A program made the position numbers and the translations under genes. Source: an uncultured Methanosarcinales archaeon (GTDB lineage Archaea; Nanobdellota; Nanobdellia; Woesearchaeales; ARS49). From it: a DNA stretch of 64,000 nt. The notes beneath the pieces are model-generated. The model was given only the letters and a program-made list of their open reading frames with translations, was not told the origin of the DNA and did no database searches. Positions 3,358-51,595 of this stretch are shown here, piece by piece. Position 1 is the stretch's first letter; the number at the start of each line of letters is the position of its first letter. The DNA lies in the NCBI GenBank assembly GCA_964362535.1, contig CAYIEN010000002.1, forward strand, positions 8,133-72,132. Reading direction: 5' to 3'.

Positions 3358-3440
3358 GCGGAGGTACCGAAGCGGTCAAACGGGCGCGGCTTAGGACCGC
3401 GTGGCTCAGGCCTTCGCAGGTTCGAATCCTGCTCTCCGCA
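3358..3440 (+). tRNA. tRNA-Leu (anticodon UAG), class II with long variable arm
   Basis: Hand-folded cloverleaf: acceptor GCGGAGG/TCTCCGC (one G-U), D stem CCG/CGG, anticodon stem CGCGG/CCGCG with loop CTTAGGA, 14-nt variable arm, T arm GCAGG-TTCGAAT-CCTGC, discriminator A. No encoded CCA. T6 at 3444-3449. Confidence 0.9.
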
Positions 3441-37978: not shown

Positions 37979-38181
37979 AAGAAAAAATAAATCACCACTC
38001 GCAAATAAATAATGCTCGTTATCACTCAGCATCTTTCTTTTCTCTACTATGCATAACCACAATCTATTTAAATCAGAAAAAGGATTTTCCTAGTGGTAGC
38101 AAAAGAGGTGAAACCACAAGTAATGGTGGTTTCTACATCGTCGGCATCGTCGGTGGCTCTTGAAGCATACCGCCCTATATG

Positions 38182-38200
38182 TTGTGTATATCAAGCACAA
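38182..38200 (+). promoter_or_regulatory. imperfect palindrome TTGTG-N9-CACAA overlapping the nrdR TATA region (candidate operator)
   Basis: TTGTGTATATCAAGCACAA ends 10 nt before the nrdR ATG. The adjacent CCCTATATGTTGTGT shares the CTATAT...GTGT part of bacterial NrdR boxes. The match is weak. Confidence 0.25.
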
Positions 38201-38209
38201 TGAACCACC

Positions 38210-38665
38210 ATGAACTGCCCGTTTTGTCTCCACGTTGAAAGCAAAGTGGTGGACAGCCGAGCGTCGGTTGATGGTGGCGAGACAAGAAGAAGGCGAGAAT
38301 GTTTGGATTGCGAAAAGCGATTCACAACGTACGAACGATTGGACACGGTTGATTTGGCAATCATCAAGAAGGATGGTCGCCGGGAAGCGTTTAGCCGCGA
38401 AAAACTCACAAGGGGCTTGTTCAAGGCGTGCGAGAAACGTCCAATCGCGAGAGAAAAGATAGAAGCGGCGGTTTCCGCAATTGAGGCAGGGTTAAGAAAG
38501 AACGACCGCCAAGAAGTGTCGTCGAGAAAAATTGGTGAATTAGTAATGGAACAATTGAAAAAATTAGACCATGTCGCGTATGTCCGTTTTGCTTCTGTGT
38601 ATCGAAGTTTCAGAGATATTTCACAATTCGAGAAAGAAATCAAACTATTAAAACAGGAAAAATGA
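38210..38665 (+). CDS. nrdR: transcriptional repressor NrdR (Zn ribbon + ATP-cone)
   Basis: MNCPFCLHVESKVVDSRASVDGGETRRRRECLDCEKRFTTYE followed by an ATP-cone (IIKKDGRREAFSREKLTRGL...). Full length, 151 aa. Confidence 0.9.
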   Translation: MNCPFCLHVESKVVDSRASVDGGETRRRRECLDCEKRFTTYERLDTVDLAIIKKDGRREAFSREKLTRGLFKACEKRPIAREKIEAAVSAIEAGLRKNDRQEVSSRKIGELVMEQLKKLDHVAYVRFASVYRSFRDISQFEKEIKLLKQEK

Positions 38666-38675
38666 GGTGTGTTGT

Positions 38676-41600
38676 ATGCAAGTAAGTGTTCAGACCCCGG
38701 GTTTATTTGTCGGCAGAAAATTTACATCGCCGAGTACGTCGCCGTATGATATGTTGGAATACGAAAAGCGATCTTCAGTAATTAAAGAGCCTGACGGTCG
38801 TATCGTGTTCGAGATGACGGATGTCGAAGTTCCGAAAACGTGGTCACAACTTGCAACAGACATTGTAGTTTCTAAATACTTCAGAAAGGCTGGCGTTCCA
38901 GGAACGGGTCACGAAGTGAACGTTAAGCAAGTCGTCAACCGTATTGCGCACACCATTCGCGGTTTTGGCGAAGAGCACGGCTATTTCCGATTGAAGGATG
39001 ACGCGAACGCGTTCGAAGACGAACTTGCATACATGTTGTTAACCCAAAGAGGGGCGTTCAACTCGCCTGTTTGGTTCAATTGTGGCTTGTTCCACCAGTA
39101 TGGGGTGCTCGGCAGTTCGGGCAACCACGCGTGGGACTTTGGCACGAAGAAAATCGACGTGATGGCACACGCATACCAACGCCCTCAGTGTTCGGCGTGT
39201 TTCATTCAGTCGATCAATGACGATATCAAGAGTATTTTCGACTTGTTGAGTCACGAAGCGACCGTGTTCAAGTATGGTTCCGGTACGGGAACGAACTTTA
39301 GTAAGTTGCGAGCGACGGGCGAGCAGTTGTCCGGCGGTGGCACGAGTTCGGGATTGATGAGCTTCCTGAAGGTGTTTGACACGGGCGCGGGCGCAATCAA
39401 GTCTGGTGGTACAACACGAAGAGCGGCGAAGATGGTCGTTCTCGATATGGACCACCCTGACATTTTGGAATTCGTTCAATGGAAATCCAAGGAAGAAAAG
39501 AAGGCCAAGGCGTTGATTGCCGCGGGTTATCCTTCGGACTTTAACGGCGAAGCGTACGCGACGGTTGCGGGTCAGAACTCCAACAACAGCGTGCGTTTGA
39601 CGGATGAATTCATGAATGCATATCTTTCTGGCGGCACGTTCGCGACCAAATGGCGAACAACGGGCAAGACGGCGAAGGAATATGATGCGAAGTTTATGAT
39701 GAGTAAGATTGCGGAGGCTGCGTGGATTTGCGCGGATCCGGGCGTGCAGTTTGATACAACGATGAATGACTGGCACACGTGTCCGAACACTGGCAGAATT
39801 AATGCAAGTAACCCGTGTTCTGAATATTTGTTCTTGGACGACTCGGCATGCAACCTCGCAAGCATTAACTTGATGAAGTTTGTTGACGAGAAAGGTGTGT
39901 TTGACATTGAGGGCTATCGCCATGCGTGTCGCACGTTCTTTGTCGCGCAAGAAATTTTGGTCGATTTGTCAAGTTATCCGACGGGGCCGATTGCGCAGAA
40001 CAGCCATGATTATAGAACGCTTGGCTTGGGCTACGCAAATCTCGGTACGTTGTTGATGGTTTGGGGCATCCCCTATGACTCGGACAAGGGCCGAGCGATT
40101 GCGGGAGCTTTGACTGCAATCATGACTGGTCACGCGTATGTCGCGTCTGCTGAAATGGCGGCCGTGAAGGGCGCGTTCGAAGGCTATGCAAAGAACAAGG
40201 AGCCGATGCTTCGAGTGATGCGTAAGCATCGAGATGCGGCGTACCAGATTGATGTTCGTTTCTGCCCGGCTGATTTGTTGAAGGCTGCGCGTGAAGACTG
40301 GGATCGCGCGGTTGAGTTGGGCGAAAAGTATGGTTACAGAAATGCACAGGCAACAGTCATTGCTCCGACCGGAACAATCGGACTTTTGATGGACTGTGAC
40401 ACGACGGGTGTTGAGCCTGAATTCGCGATGGTCAAGTGGAAGAAGTTGGCTGGCGGCGGTTACTTCAAGATTGTGAACAATAGTATTGTTCGCGCGTTGA
40501 ACACGCTTGGGTACAGTGAAGACCAAGTGAGTGAGATGCTTGAATACGTGCTTGGTCACAATACGTTCGAAGGCGCTCCTCATGTGCATACGGAAGCGTT
40601 GCGCGCGATGGGATTTACAAGCGACCAAATCAAGGAAGCCGAAGCAAGTGTCCAAAAAGCAAAGTCGTGGAACGACTGGACTCCGCACATCAATCCGAAG
40701 ACGCTGATCAACAAGGGGTTGAGCAAGCAGCAGATTGATGAGGCGAAGATTTACGTTGAAGGCGCACAGACGTTGGAGGGCGCTCCGGATTTGAAGCCGG
40801 AACATGGTGCAGTGTTTGATTGCGCGAACCCGTGCGGTATTGGTAAGCGATTTATCGACCCGATGGGGCACGTGAAGATGATGGTTGCGGTGCAGCCGTT
40901 TATCTCCGGCGCTATCTCGAAGACGGTGAACTTGCCGAATTACGCGACGGTTGAGGATATTCAGAATATTTATGTTGAGGCGTGGAAGATGGGCTTGAAG
41001 GCTGTTGCGTTGTATCGTGATGGTTGCAAGTCGTCGCAACCCTTGAACACGAAGAGCGAGGAAAAGGCGGCTGACAAAGTCGTTGAGAAGGTTGTTGCTC
41101 CGCAAATTATCGTGCAGGAGTATACGGGCTTGAAGCGCGGTCAGAAGCTTGAGCTTCCTCCGAATAGTGATGGATGTACCGTGGAATCGACGGTCGCGGG
41201 ACACAAGTTTTTCTTGCGTGCGGGTGAGTATGAGGACGGCAAGCTTGGCGAAATCTTCATTGATATGCACAAGGAAGGCGCGGCGTATCGTTCGTTGATC
41301 AACTGCTTCGCTATCGCGGTGTCGATTGGTTTGCAGTATGGTGTTCCGTTGGAGAAGTTCGTGGATAAGTTTACGTTCACGCGTTTCGAGCCGAACGGCA
41401 TGACGGATCACCCGAACGTCAGAATGTGCACGTCGATTATTGACTTGGTGTTCCGTGTCCTTGGATACGAATATCTTGGGCGTACGGACTTTTTGCACGT
41501 GAAGCCAACAACGATGGATGAAGTGTCTGTCGCTCCGGCACCGGCTGCGGCTGATGATGTGCAGGCGTCGTTAGACACGTTTGAGTCAAAGCTTCCGTCG

Positions 41601-41738
41601 GAAGCGTCAGGTATGCAGCAGCAGTTGGGCAAAATGATGGGTGACGCTCCGGCGTGCTCATCCTGCGGTCACGTTACTGTTCGCAACGGCTCGTGCTACA
41701 AGTGCCTGAACTGCGGCAACTCGATGGGTTGCAGTTAA
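38676..41738 (+). CDS. nrdJ: class II (adenosylcobalamin-dependent) ribonucleotide reductase, long bacterial type
   Basis: QCSACFIQSI, GSGTGTNFSKLR and the intact radical-site motif ASNPCSEYLFLDDSACNLASINL; C-terminal CSSCG...CYKCLNCG zinc finger. ATG at 38676, 6 nt after the GAGGTG SD that spans the nrdR stop. Confidence 0.9.
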   Translation: MQVSVQTPGLFVGRKFTSPSTSPYDMLEYEKRSSVIKEPDGRIVFEMTDVEVPKTWSQLATDIVVSKYFRKAGVPGTGHEVNVKQVVNRIAHTIRGFGEEHGYFRLKDDANAFEDELAYMLLTQRGAFNSPVWFNCGLFHQYGVLGSSGNHAWDFGTKKIDVMAHAYQRPQCSACFIQSINDDIKSIFDLLSHEATVFKYGSGTGTNFSKLRATGEQLSGGGTSSGLMSFLKVFDTGAGAIKSGGTTRRAAKMVVLDMDHPDILEFVQWKSKEEKKAKALIAAGYPSDFNGEAYATVAGQNSNNSVRLTDEFMNAYLSGGTFATKWRTTGKTAKEYDAKFMMSKIAEAAWICADPGVQFDTTMNDWHTCPNTGRINASNPCSEYLFLDDSACNLASINLMKFVDEKGVFDIEGYRHACRTFFVAQEILVDLSSYPTGPIAQNSHDYRTLGLGYANLGTLLMVWGIPYDSDKGRAIAGALTAIMTGHAYVASAEMAAVKGAFEGYAKNKEPMLRVMRKHRDAAYQIDVRFCPADLLKAAREDWDRAVELGEKYGYRNAQATVIAPTGTIGLLMDCDTTGVEPEFAMVKWKKLAGGGYFKIVNNSIVRALNTLGYSEDQVSEMLEYVLGHNTFEGAPHVHTEALRAMGFTSDQIKEAEASVQKAKSWNDWTPHINPKTLINKGLSKQQIDEAKIYVEGAQTLEGAPDLKPEHGAVFDCANPCGIGKRFIDPMGHVKMMVAVQPFISGAISKTVNLPNYATVEDIQNIYVEAWKMGLKAVALYRDGCKSSQPLNTKSEEKAADKVVEKVVAPQIIVQEYTGLKRGQKLELPPNSDGCTVESTVAGHKFFLRAGEYEDGKLGEIFIDMHKEGAAYRSLINCFAIAVSIGLQYGVPLEKFVDKFTFTRFEPNGMTDHPNVRMCTSIIDLVFRVLGYEYLGRTDFLHVKPTTMDEVSVAPAPAAADDVQASLDTFESKLPSEASGMQQQLGKMMGDAPACSSCGHVTVRNGSCYKCLNCGNSMGCS

Positions 41739-42142: not shown

Positions 42143-42489
42143 CTTCTGAACTTTCGATTGATACATTCGTTGAAGAATTGTTCACGAGGCATCGGAGGGA
42201 TTTGTTGGTCGAGCACCGTCGGAATCCGTGGAAGGTTTCGTTTTGGCGTTTGCACGAGAATGAGTCGTATCAAGGGCTTGTGAAGTTGGGCAGTAAGGCG
42301 TTTCCGTACTTTCGGTTTGCGCTGGAACAGCAGGGTCCTGATGCGTTGTTTCTTGCGGCTGCGGTGGTGACGATTGTGCAGGGGGATGCGCAATTGCGCG
42401 TTTCTACCGAGGCGTTGAAGTATCAGCAGGCGGAGCGCGCGGTGGAGTACGCGTTGGGTTTGATGAATGAGTTTCAGAGGCAGGCATGA
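42139..42489 (+). CDS. hypothetical protein (116 aa) in the nrdJ-pduO operon
   Basis: ATGA overlaps at both ends (42139 and 42486). No recognised family. Confidence 0.5.
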   Translation: MTSELSIDTFVEELFTRHRRDLLVEHRRNPWKVSFWRLHENESYQGLVKLGSKAFPYFRFALEQQGPDALFLAAAVVTIVQGDAQLRVSTEALKYQQAERAVEYALGLMNEFQRQA

Positions 42490-43004
42490 CGAACTATTTT
42501 ACGTGCACGGGGGATGCTGGTGAGTCGGGTATTCAGTTTCAGCGGTTGCAAAAGACGGATCCGGTGTTTGCCGCGATTGGGTGTGTTGATGAATTGAATG
42601 CTTCGTTGGGTGTTGCGTTGGCGTTTGTGGAGGATTTGCCTGTCAAGGAAGTGCTTGTTTCGACGCAGAATGTGTTGTTTACGGTGGGCGCGGAGTTAGC
42701 CGGAGCGGCGAAGGTGCGCATCACGGAGCAGCACGTGACTGATGTCGAGACTGCCGTGCATAACTTTTCTCAGGGTCTTAAAGAGCAAACCACGTTTTTG
42801 TTACCGCAGGGCACGAAGTCTGCTGCGTTTTTGCATTTGGCACGAACGATTTGTCGTCGAGCAGAAAGAAGTGCGCGAGTTCTCCATGAAACAAAGCCAG
42901 TGAATAATGAATTGTTGCGTTACTTGAATAGATTGTCATCATTGCTGTTTGTGCTGGCGAGATACGAAAATAGAAACAGCAATGAAGTCGCGCCGAAATA
43001 TTAA
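42486..43004 (+). CDS. pduO: PduO-type ATP:cob(I)alamin adenosyltransferase
   Basis: TGDAGESG, AIGCVDELNASLG, QNVLFTVGAELA, FLLPQG, LHLARTICRRAER and YLNRLSSLLFVLAR. Confidence 0.85.
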   Translation: MTNYFTCTGDAGESGIQFQRLQKTDPVFAAIGCVDELNASLGVALAFVEDLPVKEVLVSTQNVLFTVGAELAGAAKVRITEQHVTDVETAVHNFSQGLKEQTTFLLPQGTKSAAFLHLARTICRRAERSARVLHETKPVNNELLRYLNRLSSLLFVLARYENRNSNEVAPKY

Positions 43005-47930: not shown

Positions 47931-50003
47931 CTAGTAAGAACACTCTGTAGGACTGCCGCCTGAATATTCGGTCGAAACGGCCAATTTTTCTTCTTTTATT
48001 TTTCCTACGGTTGTTACGTGTCCTTTCTTGCTGCCGTTTCGGAAGATGGTGACGTTTTTGCAGTTGAGTTTGTGCGAGAGTAAATATGCTTTTTTGACGT
48101 CTTCAACAGTTGATTTCTCAGGCAGGTTGATTGTTTTTCCGATGGTGCTGTCGCAATGTTTTTGGAATGCTGCTTGCATTTTGATGTGGGCTTCAGGAAC
48201 AATATCGGATGAAGCCATAAATAGTCGTTGAACGTCTTTCGGTACTTCTTTGAGGCCTTGCACGCTTCCTTTGTGGGCGATTTTGAGCATGAGCGCTTTT
48301 GAGTAAAATTCTTTTTCACGCGCGATTTCTTCGAAGACAGGATTGACTTCAAGGACGTGCATGCCGTTTGCTACGTCGCGTAAGAATGCAACGGCGAATA
48401 AGGGTTCGATGCCGGATGTTGCGTTGGTGAGTGCGCTGATGGTTCCGGTTTGGGCAATTGCAGTGACGGTTGCGTTGCGCGTTCCTTTCAGCGTGCGTTT
48501 GTCTTTGGTCCAGGAAGATAATGAAAAGTTGGGGAAGCTTCCGCGTTTAACACTTGATTCGGTTGATGTTTTGCGTGCTTCGTCGTTGATGAACTTCATG
48601 AGTTTCTCGGCGAATTCGAGCGCTTTCGGAGAATCGTAAGGCAATCCTAATTTGATGAGCATTTCGGCGAAGCCCATGATTCCGAGTCCGATGCGTCGAT
48701 TTGCTTTGGTGACTGCTTCAATTTGCGGAAGAGCGTATTTGTTTGCGTCAATGCTGTTGTCTAAAAAGTGAATTGCGAGTTTGATTGTTTCAGTAAGGCG
48801 TTCCCATTCGGGTTTGCCGTGCTTGACGAATTTGGAAACGTTGATGCTGCCGAGAGTGCAGGATTCAAAAGGATGCAATGGTTGTTCGCCAGAAGTTGAT
48901 TCGATGTTTCCTAATGCGGAAGTTTGATTCGCGCGATTAATGCTTTCGATAAACAACAGTCCGGGTTCTCCTGTCATCCATGCGTTGTGGGCAAGTAAAT
49001 CGAAAACTGTTTTCGCGTTGAGTTTTCCGGTTTCTTTGTGCGTGTGCGGGTCAATGAGTGAGTATTCTTGGTTTTTTTCGACGGCTTTCAAAAAGTCGTC
49101 TGTGACTGCGACGTTAAAATTTATGTGAGAAAATGCTCCTTCTCGGAGTTTTGCGTTGATAAAGTCAAGTATGTCCGGATGGTCGATGCGAAGCACGGCG
49201 GTGTTTGCTCCTTTGCGTTTGCTTCCTTGTTTGATGACGTCGGTTGCGACGTCGAAGACGCGTAGAAAGCTTAAGGGTCCGGACGAGTGACCTTTCGTGC
49301 TTTTGATGAGCGAGTTCTTCGGGCGCAAATGACTAAAGGAAAATCCTGTGCTTCCGCCGCTTTGGTGAACTAAAGCCATCGTTTTGACTGATTCAAAAAT
49401 GTCGGATAGTGAGTCGCCAACAGGAAGTACAAAGCAAGAAGATAGTTGTCCTGCGTGCGTGCCTGCATTCATGAGTGTGGGTGTGTTTGGCAAAAATTCA
49501 AGGGAAGAAAGTGATTGATAGAATTTTTCTTCGGTTTTTTGCGTGTTGGATTTCTGGTCGTACGTTCGATCAACATGAGCAATAACTTTTGCGACGCGGC
49601 GGAACAATCGAGAAGGTGTTTCGACAACGGCTCCTTCGTCGTTGCGTAAGAGATAGCGGTCTGCTAAAACCGTAATAGCGTTCGAGCTTAATCCGAGGTC
49701 ATCGCGTACGCCGTGATACGTTCTGAATTCTTTGACTTTGTTGGTTAAACGGTAAGAGTGGTATGCTTTCACAGCATCGAGGAGTTTGTTTTTGGTGAGG
49801 ATTTCTTCGACAACGTCTTGAACGTCTTGTGCGGTTGGCGCAATAGTGAATTGTTTTTCGAGGAGTTGTACGACTTGTTCGGCGAGTTTTTTTGCTTTGG
49901 GCTGTTCTTTTGGCTTCAAAGCTGCGTGGATGGATGCCACAAGTTTGGCTGGCTGGAAGAGTTCCCAGACGCCGTCTCGTTTGAGGATTTGTGTGATTTT
50001 CAC
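47931..50003 (-). CDS. class II RNR (NrdJ)-like protein with ATP-cone but a degenerate radical-site motif
   Basis: GTG start. ATP-cone (ILKRDGVWELF...), SSCFVLPV, GGSTGFSFSHLRP and GEQPLHPFESCTLGSINV. The expected N-P-C-G-E motif reads S-T-S-G-E (codons on 48885-48899). Confidence 0.85.
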   Translation of the reverse strand: MKITQILKRDGVWELFQPAKLVASIHAALKPKEQPKAKKLAEQVVQLLEKQFTIAPTAQDVQDVVEEILTKNKLLDAVKAYHSYRLTNKVKEFRTYHGVRDDLGLSSNAITVLADRYLLRNDEGAVVETPSRLFRRVAKVIAHVDRTYDQKSNTQKTEEKFYQSLSSLEFLPNTPTLMNAGTHAGQLSSCFVLPVGDSLSDIFESVKTMALVHQSGGSTGFSFSHLRPKNSLIKSTKGHSSGPLSFLRVFDVATDVIKQGSKRKGANTAVLRIDHPDILDFINAKLREGAFSHINFNVAVTDDFLKAVEKNQEYSLIDPHTHKETGKLNAKTVFDLLAHNAWMTGEPGLLFIESINRANQTSALGNIESTSGEQPLHPFESCTLGSINVSKFVKHGKPEWERLTETIKLAIHFLDNSIDANKYALPQIEAVTKANRRIGLGIMGFAEMLIKLGLPYDSPKALEFAEKLMKFINDEARKTSTESSVKRGSFPNFSLSSWTKDKRTLKGTRNATVTAIAQTGTISALTNATSGIEPLFAVAFLRDVANGMHVLEVNPVFEEIAREKEFYSKALMLKIAHKGSVQGLKEVPKDVQRLFMASSDIVPEAHIKMQAAFQKHCDSTIGKTINLPEKSTVEDVKKAYLLSHKLNCKNVTIFRNGSKKGHVTTVGKIKEEKLAVSTEYSGGSPTECSY

Positions 50004-50041
50004 GACGATAAGAAGGGGAAAGGTGCTTAATAAACATTACT

Positions 50042-50127
50042 TATTTTCTATATAGAAAATATATTCGGGACTATATATATGATGAACGAAGTCCGAGAGT
50101 ACATAATTATTTGCTATATAGAAACTT
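50042..50127. promoter_or_regulatory. 20-bp perfect palindrome plus a 17/20 second copy and a third CTATATAT box upstream of the NrdJ-like gene
   Basis: TATTTTCTATATAGAAAATA (50042-50061), ACTATATATAT (50070-50080) and TATTTGCTATATAGAAACTT (50108-50127). The centres of boxes 1 and 3 are 66 bp apart. Confidence 0.4.
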
Positions 50128-50356
50128 ATTCGTTGGTTACGTGAATACAGTTGACGGGACAAATTTCCTCTGCTTCTTTGCTTTTGTCCATCTTCGCAAC
50201 AGAGCGTTCTTCGCGTACGCCTTCAGCTACTTTGTGGTGTTTTGATTCTTTTAAATCCACGAAATTATCATCGGCCATTTCCCAGCGGTCAGGATCTACC
50301 GCAACGCAGCTACCGCAACCGATGCATTTCCAGCGTTCGTGAACAATCTTAATCAT
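50126..50356 (-). CDS. small ferredoxin (single Fe-S cluster type)
   Basis: MIKIVHERWKCIGCGSCVAVDP...EEICPVNCIH (CxxCxxC...CP). ATG at 50356 with a TTTATAAT box centred 26.5 nt upstream. The track ORF is over-extended. Confidence 0.7.
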   Translation of the reverse strand: MIKIVHERWKCIGCGSCVAVDPDRWEMADDNFVDLKESKHHKVAEGVREERSVAKMDKSKEAEEICPVNCIHVTNE

Positions 50357-50452
50357 GCTGTTTCTACCGTTTAGAGGGATTATAAAGTTTATGGAGTGTT
50401 GTCTAGAAGTAGACAGCGCGTGATTAAATGCGGAATTTTCGCAAAGAATGTC

Positions 50453-51595
50453 ATGGAAGTATTTCAGTATCATCCGCGTTCCGAACGAGAAACCAGAACC
50501 AAGGATTTGCTCGCGTCTCAATCAGACTATTCGAGTGCGATGCTGTCTGTGTCTTGTAAACGAAAAGAACGCGAGGAGTTGGCGTATCAGTTGGAGCGTC
50601 AGTATGGTGTGCCGTGTACGGCGTTGATGACGTCGAAAACAATCGTGATGAAGGCGCCGTCCAGCGAAACTCCGAAAATAATGCAGTATGTTGCTCGGGC
50701 GAATATGCGGGCACGTGTGGCGAACCGGTTTGTTCCAAAACTTCCCGTGCCGGTCAAGTCTGCGGTGAAAGCTCTCTCGTTGGACCATGTGGCGATGCTG
50801 AATGCGTATGAGGCGCACAAAACAACGACGGGCGAGCGTTCTACGGTCGCGATTATTGATACGGGTGTTGATTATACGCATCCGGTTTTGAAAAACAATT
50901 TTGATCGCGAGATTGGGTATGATTTTGTGACAAACTCAGAGTTTCCGAAGGATAGGCATGGTCACGGCACGCATGTTGCGGGTATTGTCAAGGCTATTGC
51001 TCCGGGTGTGCGTTTGAAGGCGCTTCGCGTGTTGAATGATCAAGGTGTTGGTTCGGAGGCGGACGTTCTTCTTGCGTACGAGTGGTGTTACAAGCGGGCG
51101 ATTCCAATTCTGAATTGCAGTCTGGGTGCGTCGGCGGCGTCGAGCGAAGAACGTGAGGTGGTGCTTGCGGCTCAGTCACAAAAGTGTTTGATTGTTGCCG
51201 CTGCAGGTAACGAGTCTGATGGTGAGGAAGCTCCGGATCAGGAGGGGTATCCTGCTTGGTTTGATGGGGTGCAGTCGATTGCGAGCATTGATCGTCACCG
51301 AAAGCATTCTTCGTTTAGCAATATGGGAAAGGTTGAATTTTCAGCGTTGGGCGAGAACATCATGTCGACGCTTCCGAATAATGAGTATGGTTCTATGACG
51401 GGGACGTCGATGGCGTGTCCGTGTGTTGCTGGTGCGTTTGCGTTGCAGCATTCCGCGCATCAGGTGGATTTGGAGGATAGGTTAAAACGCGCATCAACAG
51501 AGTGCCAGACTGGTTTTGGTCGTCAGTATGAAAAAAGGCAGTGGGAGCGCCGTTTTGGCTTTGGCATTCCTGACTGTGCGAGGTGGGTGCAATGA
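50453..51595 (+). CDS. subtilisin-like serine protease (S8), no signal peptide
   Basis: Catalytic triad contexts AIIDTGVD, HGHGTHVAG and GTSMACP. The N-terminal ~100 aa look like an I9-type propeptide. The start is uncertain (ATG 50453, GTG 50396 or 50420). Confidence 0.8.
   Translation: MEVFQYHPRSERETRTKDLLASQSDYSSAMLSVSCKRKEREELAYQLERQYGVPCTALMTSKTIVMKAPSSETPKIMQYVARANMRARVANRFVPKLPVPVKSAVKALSLDHVAMLNAYEAHKTTTGERSTVAIIDTGVDYTHPVLKNNFDREIGYDFVTNSEFPKDRHGHGTHVAGIVKAIAPGVRLKALRVLNDQGVGSEADVLLAYEWCYKRAIPILNCSLGASAASSEEREVVLAAQSQKCLIVAAAGNESDGEEAPDQEGYPAWFDGVQSIASIDRHRKHSSFSNMGKVEFSALGENIMSTLPNNEYGSMTGTSMACPCVAGAFALQHSAHQVDLEDRLKRASTECQTGFGRQYEKRQWERRFGFGIPDCARWVQ

Follow-up and report, generated by a model that had tools for sequence, protein, structure and literature searches.

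Our analysis of 64,000 nt from the genome of a Woesearchaeota (DPANN) archaeon (this whole stretch is referred to as the window) revealed a short NrdJ paralog that has lost the thiyl-radical cysteine of class II ribonucleotide reductases (RNRs) and has remained a full open reading frame (ORF) under purifying selection. We favour, with moderate confidence, the view that this protein is a dead but selectively maintained descendant of a dimeric ATP-cone class II RNR, i.e. a pseudoenzyme that is kept for a nucleotide-binding, sensing or regulatory role. Evolutionary support is solid, and there is a second example; the carriers form a narrow lineage. Residue numbers are those of the 690-aa short NrdJ, and the positions of all features are listed in Table 1.

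Domains and predicted fold of the short NrdJ

The short NrdJ is a class II RNR of the Thermotoga maritima type with ATP-cone according to Pfam, NCBIfam and structure searches. An initial annotation, made from the sequence, had described a 690-aa class II RNR-type ORF with a GTG start at 50003 and an ATP-cone, and the ORF, the Pfam domains, the NCBIfam model and the match to T. maritima all agree with that description. TIGR02504 (the NrdJ_Z equivalog of NCBIfam) scores the protein at 634 bits with a cut-off of 400, and the closest solved structure is that of T. maritima NrdJ (PDB 1xjk/1xje; phmmer E=2.5e-112). An AlphaFold2 model of the protein (pLDDT 80, pTM 0.78) has its best fold match in the T. 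maritima NrdJ structures, with TM values of 0.82-0.84, and points to an RNR fold that is probably intact.

The ATP-cone signature K8-R9-D10-G11...E14...K20 is kept, and K8, R9, D10, G11, F16 and K20, which all occupy invariant or near-invariant columns of the family alignment, are unchanged. The apical phosphate loop is found in the N-domain, where our reasoning on the motif was taken from PMC8365446. The active-site redox cysteine pair on beta-A and beta-F (Cys190 and Cys382) is present. Cys382 is followed by Thr383, a position at which every row shown of 119 aligned relatives has Asn.

Loss of Asn-Pro-Cys from the finger loop

The codons tca act tct ggc gaa were given correctly in the initial annotation as the reverse complement of 48885-48899, and they encode S369-T370-S371-G372-E373. 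In a MAFFT alignment with the 120 best database relatives, 119 relatives read (S/T/A)-T-N-P/S-C-G-E at the finger loop, and the window protein alone reads IEST--SGE. Pairwise alignment by phmmer matched 'KINSTNPCGEIGL' of T. maritima with 'NIESTS--GEQPL' of the short NrdJ and placed the gap at the same spot. S369-T370 correspond to the conserved Ser-Thr upstream of NPC, and NPC itself is replaced by the single S371 and a two-residue gap. The loop holds no Cys, its Asn is deleted or replaced, and Glu373 is present. The earlier claim that the thiyl-radical Cys is missing is thus confirmed by both alignments. They contradict the column assignment made at that time, in which S369, T370 and S371 had stood for Asn, Pro and Cys.

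The mutational path also differs from the one initially proposed, namely at least four substitutions and no indel. A sister gene that is 71% identical (locus L002) reads ACA AAC CCG TGC GGC where the window reads ACT --- --- TCT GGC, so that the lesion consists at the DNA level of a 6-nt in-frame deletion with one or more base changes in the Cys codon, between flanks that are near-identical to those of L002. N-P-C is kept in all 81 other related loci (80 GTDB loci and L002).

The finger-loop Asn is not universal in the NrdJ family and its loss is not decisive alone, because Ser takes the position of Asn in three of the diverse NrdJ representatives (P0303, P0378 and P0413), whose finger loops (S-P-C-x-E or S-G-C-A-E) still contain the Cys. 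All biochemically characterised RNRs rely on the finger-loop Cys (bioRxiv 10.1101/2022.04.23.489257), and an active-site Cys-to-Ala mutant of NrdJd has no activity (PMC5704485). By the established RNR mechanism the lack of this Cys means that the 3'-H cannot be abstracted and hence that no ribonucleotide is reduced; it follows from this mechanism that the short NrdJ would be incapable of reducing ribonucleotides.

The lesion sits exactly on the NP/C junction (a slash marks the junction), at which about half of 150 diverse family representatives carry an intein, placed precisely at TNP/C. In two long NrdJ proteins of sister Woesearchaeota (P0129 and P0240) an intein is likewise inserted exactly between Pro and the radical Cys, and the pattern across these proteins and the representatives is SNP/C-intein-HN/CSEY or CGEQ. 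No intein sequence was found inside the short nrdJ gene of the window and none in 120 close short-NrdJ relatives. The position suggests that the lesion might be a scar of a homing endonuclease or of intein loss at NP/C. Inteins also recur at other places, near query residues 218 and 260, which coincide with the replacements G218S and G261S of the dead gene.

Occurrence of the lesion in other assemblies

The 90%-identity cluster of the short NrdJ includes a protein (P0121) from an independent ENA/MGnify assembly. The corresponding locus, L001, is a 3,935-bp contig from Hainich aquifer well H52 (ENA ERZ1292616), and its short nrdJ is 96.1% nucleotide-identical to that of the window; the two genes differ by 81 nt and 23 residues, yet the lesion and the other unusual motifs are identical. 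A degenerate-pattern scan of metagenome contigs found a further carrier, L004 (ERZ1292629, Hainich well H43), which is 99.9% identical to the window over 48643-51554 and contains the lesion. The 15-nt lesion is therefore identical across three assemblies and two wells. Another match of the metagenome scan (L003) was rejected as a chance match with no homology, and a degenerate-pattern scan found no lesion carrier among the GTDB species representatives. All lesion carriers belong to one 90% cluster from one aquifer.

An artefact of sequencing, assembly or binning, in which the true gene reads NPCGE and the error affects a single metagenome-assembled genome, might be suspected from the low coverage of the source contigs (3.5-4x). 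We give it practically no credence. An assembly artefact is ruled out by L001 and L004, with the same 15 nt in three assemblies from two wells and one allele that differs at 81 other positions of the gene. Furthermore, a 6-nt in-frame deletion with adjacent substitutions is atypical of Illumina errors, and approximately 30 further lineage-specific changes at invariant columns go together with the lesion. The earlier statement that there is no frameshift or stop and that no single sequencing error explains the lesion accordingly holds, the lesion being repeated in L001 and L004.

Erosion of the barrel and gene-specific acceleration

We defined 200 columns as conserved, i.e. at least 95% conserved among the 119 relatives. 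The short NrdJ deviates at 31 of them, compared to a median of 2 and a maximum of 12 among the relatives. None of the 36 conserved columns in residues 1-187 (ATP-cone and N-domain) is lost, whereas the barrel and tail have lost 31 of their 164 (p=0.002). All 31 lost columns lie at residue 189 or beyond, most of them in the barrel, while Q662H and L664T belong to the C-terminal tail. Barrel changes at near-invariant columns include A189S, which adjoins the first redox Cys, as well as G218S, G261S, R264K, N293H, D346E, E354S, P518Q and G650N. At the level of motifs, GGGTG has become GGSTG, GDPG...DE has become GEPG...ES, and APTG, the distal phosphate loop as described in PMC8365446, has become AQTG. 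The C-terminal Cys pair C-x(1-4)-C, which is needed for physiological re-reduction of class II RNR (PMC5704485), is present in 113 of 120 relatives and reduced to a single Cys in the short NrdJ.

The stem leading to both dead alleles carries 93 unique replacements versus 35 on the sister branch when polarised with outgroups (p=3e-7), and 71 versus 24 with a second outgroup set (p=1.5e-6), so that it is approximately 2.7-3 times as long as the sister branch. Control genes of the same genomes are symmetric (long NrdJ 48:52, VIT1 8:13, superoxide dismutase (SOD) 1:2, cobalamin adenosyltransferase 14:7, NrdR 4:5), and a lineage-wide rate acceleration is ruled out as cause of the long branch by these five genes. 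Short NrdJ has diverged 1.72-2.02 times as much as long NrdJ in every pair with the window, compared to 1.10-1.49 times in pairs of genomes whose copies are intact.

We also considered the base composition of the strands. The strand asymmetry is very strong: plus-strand GC skew amounts to +0.18 over the window (1-64000) and is positive in every 2-kb bin regardless of gene orientation. The third-position GC skew of the coding strands is -0.58 for short nrdJ (minus strand) and +0.20 for long nrdJ (plus strand), and many replacements in the short NrdJ lose a G on the coding strand. Since L002 has the skew and the more distant sister loci L089 and L090 do not, it arose recently in the sub-lineage. 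Strand compositional bias was rejected as cause of the acceleration, given that L002 has the same skew and gene orientation and that VIT1 on the same strand is not accelerated.

From 35 baseline changes and a 3.5-fold rate after the loss, we roughly estimate that the dead state occupies about two-thirds of the time elapsed since the lineage separated from its sister.

A further short NrdJ with unusual features was observed in L090 (10001-12091; P0007/P0273). It reads NSCGE at the finger loop, has one C-terminal Cys (GGSPVFEC) and shows 12 conserved-column changes, the second highest number of the 120, and its genome also has a long NrdJ. This protein may represent an earlier stage of relaxation.

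Purifying selection on the dead gene

All dN/dS (omega) values, i.e. ratios of non-synonymous to synonymous divergence, are Nei-Gojobori estimates. Between the window and L001 the dead short nrdJ shows 51.5 synonymous and 29.5 non-synonymous differences (dS 0.119, dN/dS 0.157), a synonymous excess over neutrality with a binomial p=1.7e-15, and omega of the barrel alone is 0.17. For the same two alleles, the neighbouring VIT1 gene has 25 synonymous and 2 non-synonymous differences (dS 0.167, dN/dS 0.022) and the neighbouring ferredoxin gene 2 and 0 (dS 0.048, dN/dS 0). Pairs of intact short-NrdJ orthologs give dN/dS values of 0.044-0.057 at dS from 0.32 to 1.2, and the constraint on the dead copy is approximately 3.5-fold weaker than on these orthologs (Fisher p=5e-4). 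No nonsense change was seen between the two alleles, whereas about 10.6 would be expected at a neutral divergence equal to dS (P=2e-5), and the gene contains no stop or frameshift across the three assemblies. Only 1 of the 23 allele differences falls inside the 169 conserved columns that were kept, versus 5.6 expected, and 3 of the 23 fall inside conserved columns that were already lost.

A neutral pseudogene is ruled out by an omega significantly below 1 and by the 0 stops where 10.6 were expected. The dead gene is under purifying selection, which is weaker than normal. With its descent from an enzyme family, the loss of an essential residue and an intact ORF under purifying selection, the short NrdJ would qualify as a pseudoenzyme.

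The initial annotation had offered two explanations, a pseudoenzyme or a very young pseudogene, and had proposed a search of relatives for the STSGE variant together with a dN/dS estimate as checks. The variant was found in L001 and L004 and not among the GTDB representatives, and the dN/dS was 0.157. The first explanation gains support from the missing radical Cys, the intact ORF, this dN/dS value, the untouched invariant residues of ATP-cone and N-domain and the conserved upstream region (see below). The second has to be rejected. Of the 31 lost columns two are gap columns, and 27 of the 29 substitutions at the others are common to both alleles; because of this, the lesion and the degeneration are older than the allele split (dS=0.12), and the stem is, as shown above, far longer than the sister branch.

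Gene neighbourhood and second RNR

The short nrdJ is part of a conserved block with the order TrmB-family regulator, NrdR, long NrdJ, hypothetical gene, cobalamin adenosyltransferase, pirin, BtpA, cyclophilin, SOD, VIT1, short NrdJ, ferredoxin and S8 peptidase.

Table 1. Positions in the window of the short nrdJ gene, its domains and key residues, and of the features around it.
Feature	Coordinates	Strand	Description
Cys-less short NrdJ paralog	47931..50003	-	690 aa, GTG start, TAA stop included
ATP-cone, residues 5-87	49743..49991	-	Pfam PF03477, 50.3 bits vs cut-off 25.8
RNR all-alpha N-domain, residues 105-183	49455..49691	-	Pfam PF00317; contains apical phosphate loop P-N-T-P
Ten-stranded barrel, residues 188-653	48045..49442	-	Pfam PF02867, E=1e-118
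Cys190, first active-site redox Cys (SSCFV)	49434..49436	-	Kept; invariant column
Finger-loop lesion S369-T370-S371-G372-E373	48885..48899	-	From codons, phmmer and MAFFT; Glu373 kept
Cys382, second active-site redox Cys (ESCTLGS)	48858..48860	-	Kept; invariant column
C-terminal tail ...GGSPTECSY	47934..47978	-	One Cys left; C-P-T-E-C changed to S-P-T-E-C
Conserved upstream region of short nrdJ	50022..50123	-	Two palindromes TTCTATATAGAA and invariant TTTATTAA
Small single-cluster ferredoxin	50126..50356	-	Directly upstream of short nrdJ in every clade member examined
NrdR (Zn-ribbon and ATP-cone repressor)	38210..38665	+	Directly upstream of long nrdJ
Long NrdJd-type class II RNR, 1020 aa, intact	38676..41738	+	CSACF, NPCSE, SACNLAS, APTGT, TSCPD domain, C-terminal Cys-rich zinc-ribbon tail
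ATP:cob(I)alamin adenosyltransferase (makes adenosylcobalamin)	42486..43004	+	In conserved block

The long NrdJ, which is located 6 kb from the short nrdJ, is presumed to be the working reductase, being the sole candidate for deoxyribonucleoside triphosphate (dNTP) synthesis seen in the window. It keeps NPCSE, as initially noted, and every other motif is present too. Its homologs at 62-68% identity come from both Woesearchaeota/Nanoarchaeota and bacteria. The block with both paralogs was read directly in two sister genomes (L002 and L090), and the short copy is intact in both; in L089 the short-NrdJ side of the block was read up to the adenosyltransferase at the edge of the locus. We infer that the long paralog also occurs in L089, c78303 and c77352. 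Because both NrdJ paralogs coexist across the clade, the redundancy is old and merely permitted the loss, and there was no recent displacement. The earlier idea that a bacterial-type operon had functionally displaced the short enzyme is correct in so far as the window encodes an intact NrdJd-type enzyme together with NrdR, and this enzyme is the obvious catalyst. It fails as a recent event, since the module coexists with an intact short NrdJ in L002 and L090.

The ferredoxin gene next to short nrdJ shows no non-synonymous differences between the alleles, and its product may serve the (ancestral) short NrdJ as a dedicated redox partner. In L002 (2666-3133) a ParE toxin and small-ORF pair is inserted between short nrdJ and VIT1.

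Upstream region of short nrdJ

The 122-nt spacer between ferredoxin and short nrdJ is conserved although the short NrdJ proteins are only 62-71% identical. It contains a perfect 12-bp palindrome, TTCTATATAGAA, twice (50046-50057 and 50112-50123), and an invariant TATA-like TTTATTAA at 50027-50034, 24-31 nt upstream of the GTG. In archaeal promoters, such a spacing fits a TATA box that drives a leaderless mRNA. The TTTATTAA element is accordingly spaced like a predicted TATA box of a leaderless mRNA, and the pair of TTCTATATAGAA copies just upstream might be a putative operator. The palindrome pair and the TATA-like box were also found at the equivalent positions of L001, L002, L004, L089 and L090. 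The pair occurs only upstream of short nrdJ in the window and the sister loci and is essentially absent from 84 other loci. The dead lineage keeps the whole promoter and palindrome region. In L002 (495-581) an insert of approximately 75 nt with two short hairpins lies between a start-like GTGAAAATCAAC, homologous to the start in the window, and the annotated ATG.

The palindrome differs from the bacterial NrdR box, and no site matching the bacterial NrdR-box consensus was found upstream of the dead gene. A weak NrdR-box-like GCCCTATATGTTGTGT (38172-38187), located 23 nt upstream of nrdR, departs from the bacterial consensus at 3 positions, and this match is no better than chance (55 of 100 shuffles). 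Neither nrdJ gene has a cobalamin riboswitch nearby, and the only Rfam family detected in the 64 kb is a single tRNA (Leu, 3358-3440).

A second NrdJ without finger-loop cysteine

Among 150 representatives of 50%-identity clusters all but one keep the finger-loop Cys. The exception, P0411, is a 660-aa full ORF with ATP-cone from another Woesearchaeota lineage and has neither the finger-loop Cys nor the Asn. It also lacks the first redox Cys, GGGTG, APTG and the tail; 78 of the 200 conserved columns are changed, and it carries 158 unique changes versus 26 in its sister. P0411 was found in at least four source collections or assemblies, whose members differ by only 1-2 residues, and two contigs were read (L091 10001-11983 and L092 5511-7493). 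The gene has an XPD-like helicase on one side and two DHH-family phosphoesterases on the other, an IS605 OrfB/TnpB gene is nearby, and no long NrdJ was found within 10 kb of it.

The loss in P0411 is independent, because its nearest relatives (49-52% identity, Woesearchaeota) are all intact. Common ancestry with the window protein was rejected for the same reason and also on the basis of shared derived residues, of which there are 8 identical ones compared to 3-7 in Cys-bearing divergent controls. P0411 thus resembles the window protein in its parent family, the ATP-cone, the absence of the finger-loop Cys and Asn and a full ORF in several assemblies. It differs in its independent origin, far stronger erosion and gene context. 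P0411 deviates at 24 of the 31 columns that were lost by the window protein versus 54 of the 169 kept ones (p=4e-6), and the columns relaxed in both dead lineages are presumably the catalysis-specific ones.

This second case also bears on the question of whether the short NrdJ has acquired an altered chemistry, in which the shortened loop works with no thiyl relay and a 5'-deoxyadenosyl radical derived from adenosylcobalamin (AdoCbl) or another cofactor acts directly, or in which a non-radical nucleotide reaction takes place. The barrel fold, C190, C382, Glu373 and most of the nucleotide pocket are kept, purifying selection extends to the barrel (omega 0.17), and a gene for AdoCbl synthesis lies in the conserved block, as would be expected of an active enzyme. 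We nevertheless consider such a chemistry very improbable. The finger-loop Cys is used by every RNR that has been characterised biochemically (bioRxiv 10.1101/2022.04.23.489257), the changes have the appearance of losses (tail Cys, APTG proline, GGGTG and Asn are gone) with no new conserved motif, and in P0411 the first redox Cys and the entire APTG loop are missing as well.

Retained role or slow decay

In the short NrdJ the finger loop has lost Asn-Pro-Cys, one C-terminal shuttle Cys is gone and the APTG loop and other barrel motifs are altered. In the scenario that we favour, a maintained pseudoenzyme, dNTP synthesis would rest on the intact NrdJd-type paralog 6 kb away, beside NrdR and cobalamin adenosyltransferase. 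After the loss the gene has stayed an ORF under approximately 3.5 times weaker purifying selection than intact orthologs, and it has kept the invariant residues of ATP-cone and N-domain as well as the promoter and palindrome region. The protein would still fold and dimerise as an RNR; its ATP-cone would still bind ATP/dATP, and the specificity site would probably still accept dNTPs. D197, R227, K258, Q259 and R263, which we take to be the equivalents of T. maritima D141, R171, K202, Q203 and R207, lie in invariant or near-invariant columns and are kept. Candidate targets of the retained role would be the long NrdJ, which has no ATP-cone, or NrdR, or the role might be simple nucleotide buffering.

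Several points weigh against this scenario. The function is inferred solely from what is conserved, and G218S, G261S and R264K touch loops 1 and 2, so that effector binding may suffer too. With an omega about 3.5 times the family baseline and an approximately 2.5-fold acceleration in all domains, a slow relaxation toward loss would also be possible. The dN/dS value comes from a single allele pair (81 differences) on low-coverage metagenome contigs (3.5x and 4x), and the carrier lineage is narrow, with one 90% cluster in one aquifer. P0411 has also lost 10 of the 36 N-terminal conserved columns, which makes it less likely that the ATP-cone is the part preserved over the long term. Furthermore, the window covers 64 kb of the genome, and a further RNR or a partner that explains the retention could lie elsewhere.

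The main competing explanation is that a gene on its way out is observed, which is redundant beside the long NrdJ, has lost catalysis and drifts to deletion, with a residual constraint that reflects selection against misfolded or dominant-negative products or a short sampling window. Such a decay would account for an omega 3.5-fold above that of intact orthologs, for the acceleration of all domains (ATP-cone 11:4, N-domain 8:3), for the stepwise erosion at several catalytic motifs and for the very narrow lineage, and P0007/P0273, with NSCGE, a single Cys in the tail and changes at 12 conserved columns, may show how it begins. However, neutral drift is rejected (p=1.7e-15), with 0 stops versus 10.6 expected between the alleles alone, and the much longer stem branch also passed with no stop or frameshift. 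The allele differences avoid the kept conserved columns, none of the 36 conserved N-terminal columns has been lost, conservation extends to the regulatory region, and P0411 demonstrates that dead copies can persist as full ORFs through approximately 158 lineage-specific replacements. Given the strong selection signal and this precedent, slow decay of a redundant gene appears rather unlikely to us.

A more far-reaching version of the pseudoenzyme scenario would be that Woesearchaeota (DPANN) turned ATP-cone class II RNRs into non-catalytic nucleotide sensors at least twice, in the lineage of the window and in that of P0411, and that these act on dNTP homeostasis or replication. This might involve a dATP/ATP-responsive control of the ATP-cone-less NrdJd or of NrdR, or a role beside the XPD helicase and DHH phosphoesterases of P0411, and the lesion may be an intein or homing-endonuclease scar. 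We regard this combination as speculative and unlikely as a whole.

Significance

RNR is usually treated as a strictly catalytic and essential enzyme. If the pseudoenzyme scenario is true, nucleotide-binding or regulatory modules can evolve from an RNR scaffold with ATP-cone, and this would have happened twice independently in genome-reduced archaea. Annotation by hidden Markov models labels the dead protein as 'vitamin B12-dependent ribonucleotide reductase', since the TIGR02504 equivalog cut-off is passed, and metabolic reconstructions of DPANN archaea could therefore count a non-functional RNR. The paired alleles together with an intact sister copy provide a tractable system, and the columns relaxed in both dead lineages offer a natural map of catalysis-specific versus structure- or allostery-specific positions. 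Our literature search found no cellular or class II non-catalytic homolog of the RNR large subunit, which is no proof that none has been described, and nothing relevant was found on RNR pseudoenzymes or on Woesearchaeota RNR.

Comparison with known systems

The dimeric class II NrdJ of T. maritima, Thermoplasma and Pyrococcus are the closest counterparts of the short NrdJ, which resembles them in end-to-end homology, fold, the redox Cys pair and the Glu. It has the N-terminal ATP-cone of its archaeal relatives and the diphosphate-type apical loop P-N-(S/T)-P of T. maritima-type NrdJ. Unlike the latter, it has a finger loop that is two residues shorter and holds no Asn or radical Cys, it has lost one shuttle Cys, and it shows the 31 conserved-column changes described above. 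It should not be classed as a functional NrdJ.

A retained non-catalytic RNR subunit is Rnr4 of Saccharomyces cerevisiae, an R2-like protein that is kept beside an active paralog and heterodimerises with Rnr2. It resembles the short NrdJ as an RNR paralog that lacks essential cofactor or catalytic residues and is under selection next to an active one. However, Rnr4 is a beta (radical-generating) subunit, whereas the short NrdJ is of the alpha type and its active neighbour is too divergent for an obvious heterodimer.

That neighbour, the long NrdJ, resembles the NrdJd of Stackebrandtia nassauensis (PMC5704485) in the arrangement of Ribonuc_red_2_N, barrel, TSCPD and a terminal multi-Cys zinc-ribbon tail. 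It belongs to another subclass than the dead short NrdJ, has no ATP-cone, and its catalytic residues are all intact.

The inactive R1 homologs of betaherpesviruses, namely UL45 of human cytomegalovirus and M45/vIRA of murine cytomegalovirus, lost catalysis and were kept for a non-catalytic role (PMC5469499 and related papers). They are similar to the short NrdJ as retained homologs of the RNR large subunit that have no catalytic competence. The viral proteins are derived from class I and gained N-terminal RHIM-type sequences for interference with cell death and NF-kB, whereas the short NrdJ is a class II protein of a cellular archaeon that has no added domain and keeps its ATP-cone. Dead RNR large subunits are already known from betaherpesviruses.

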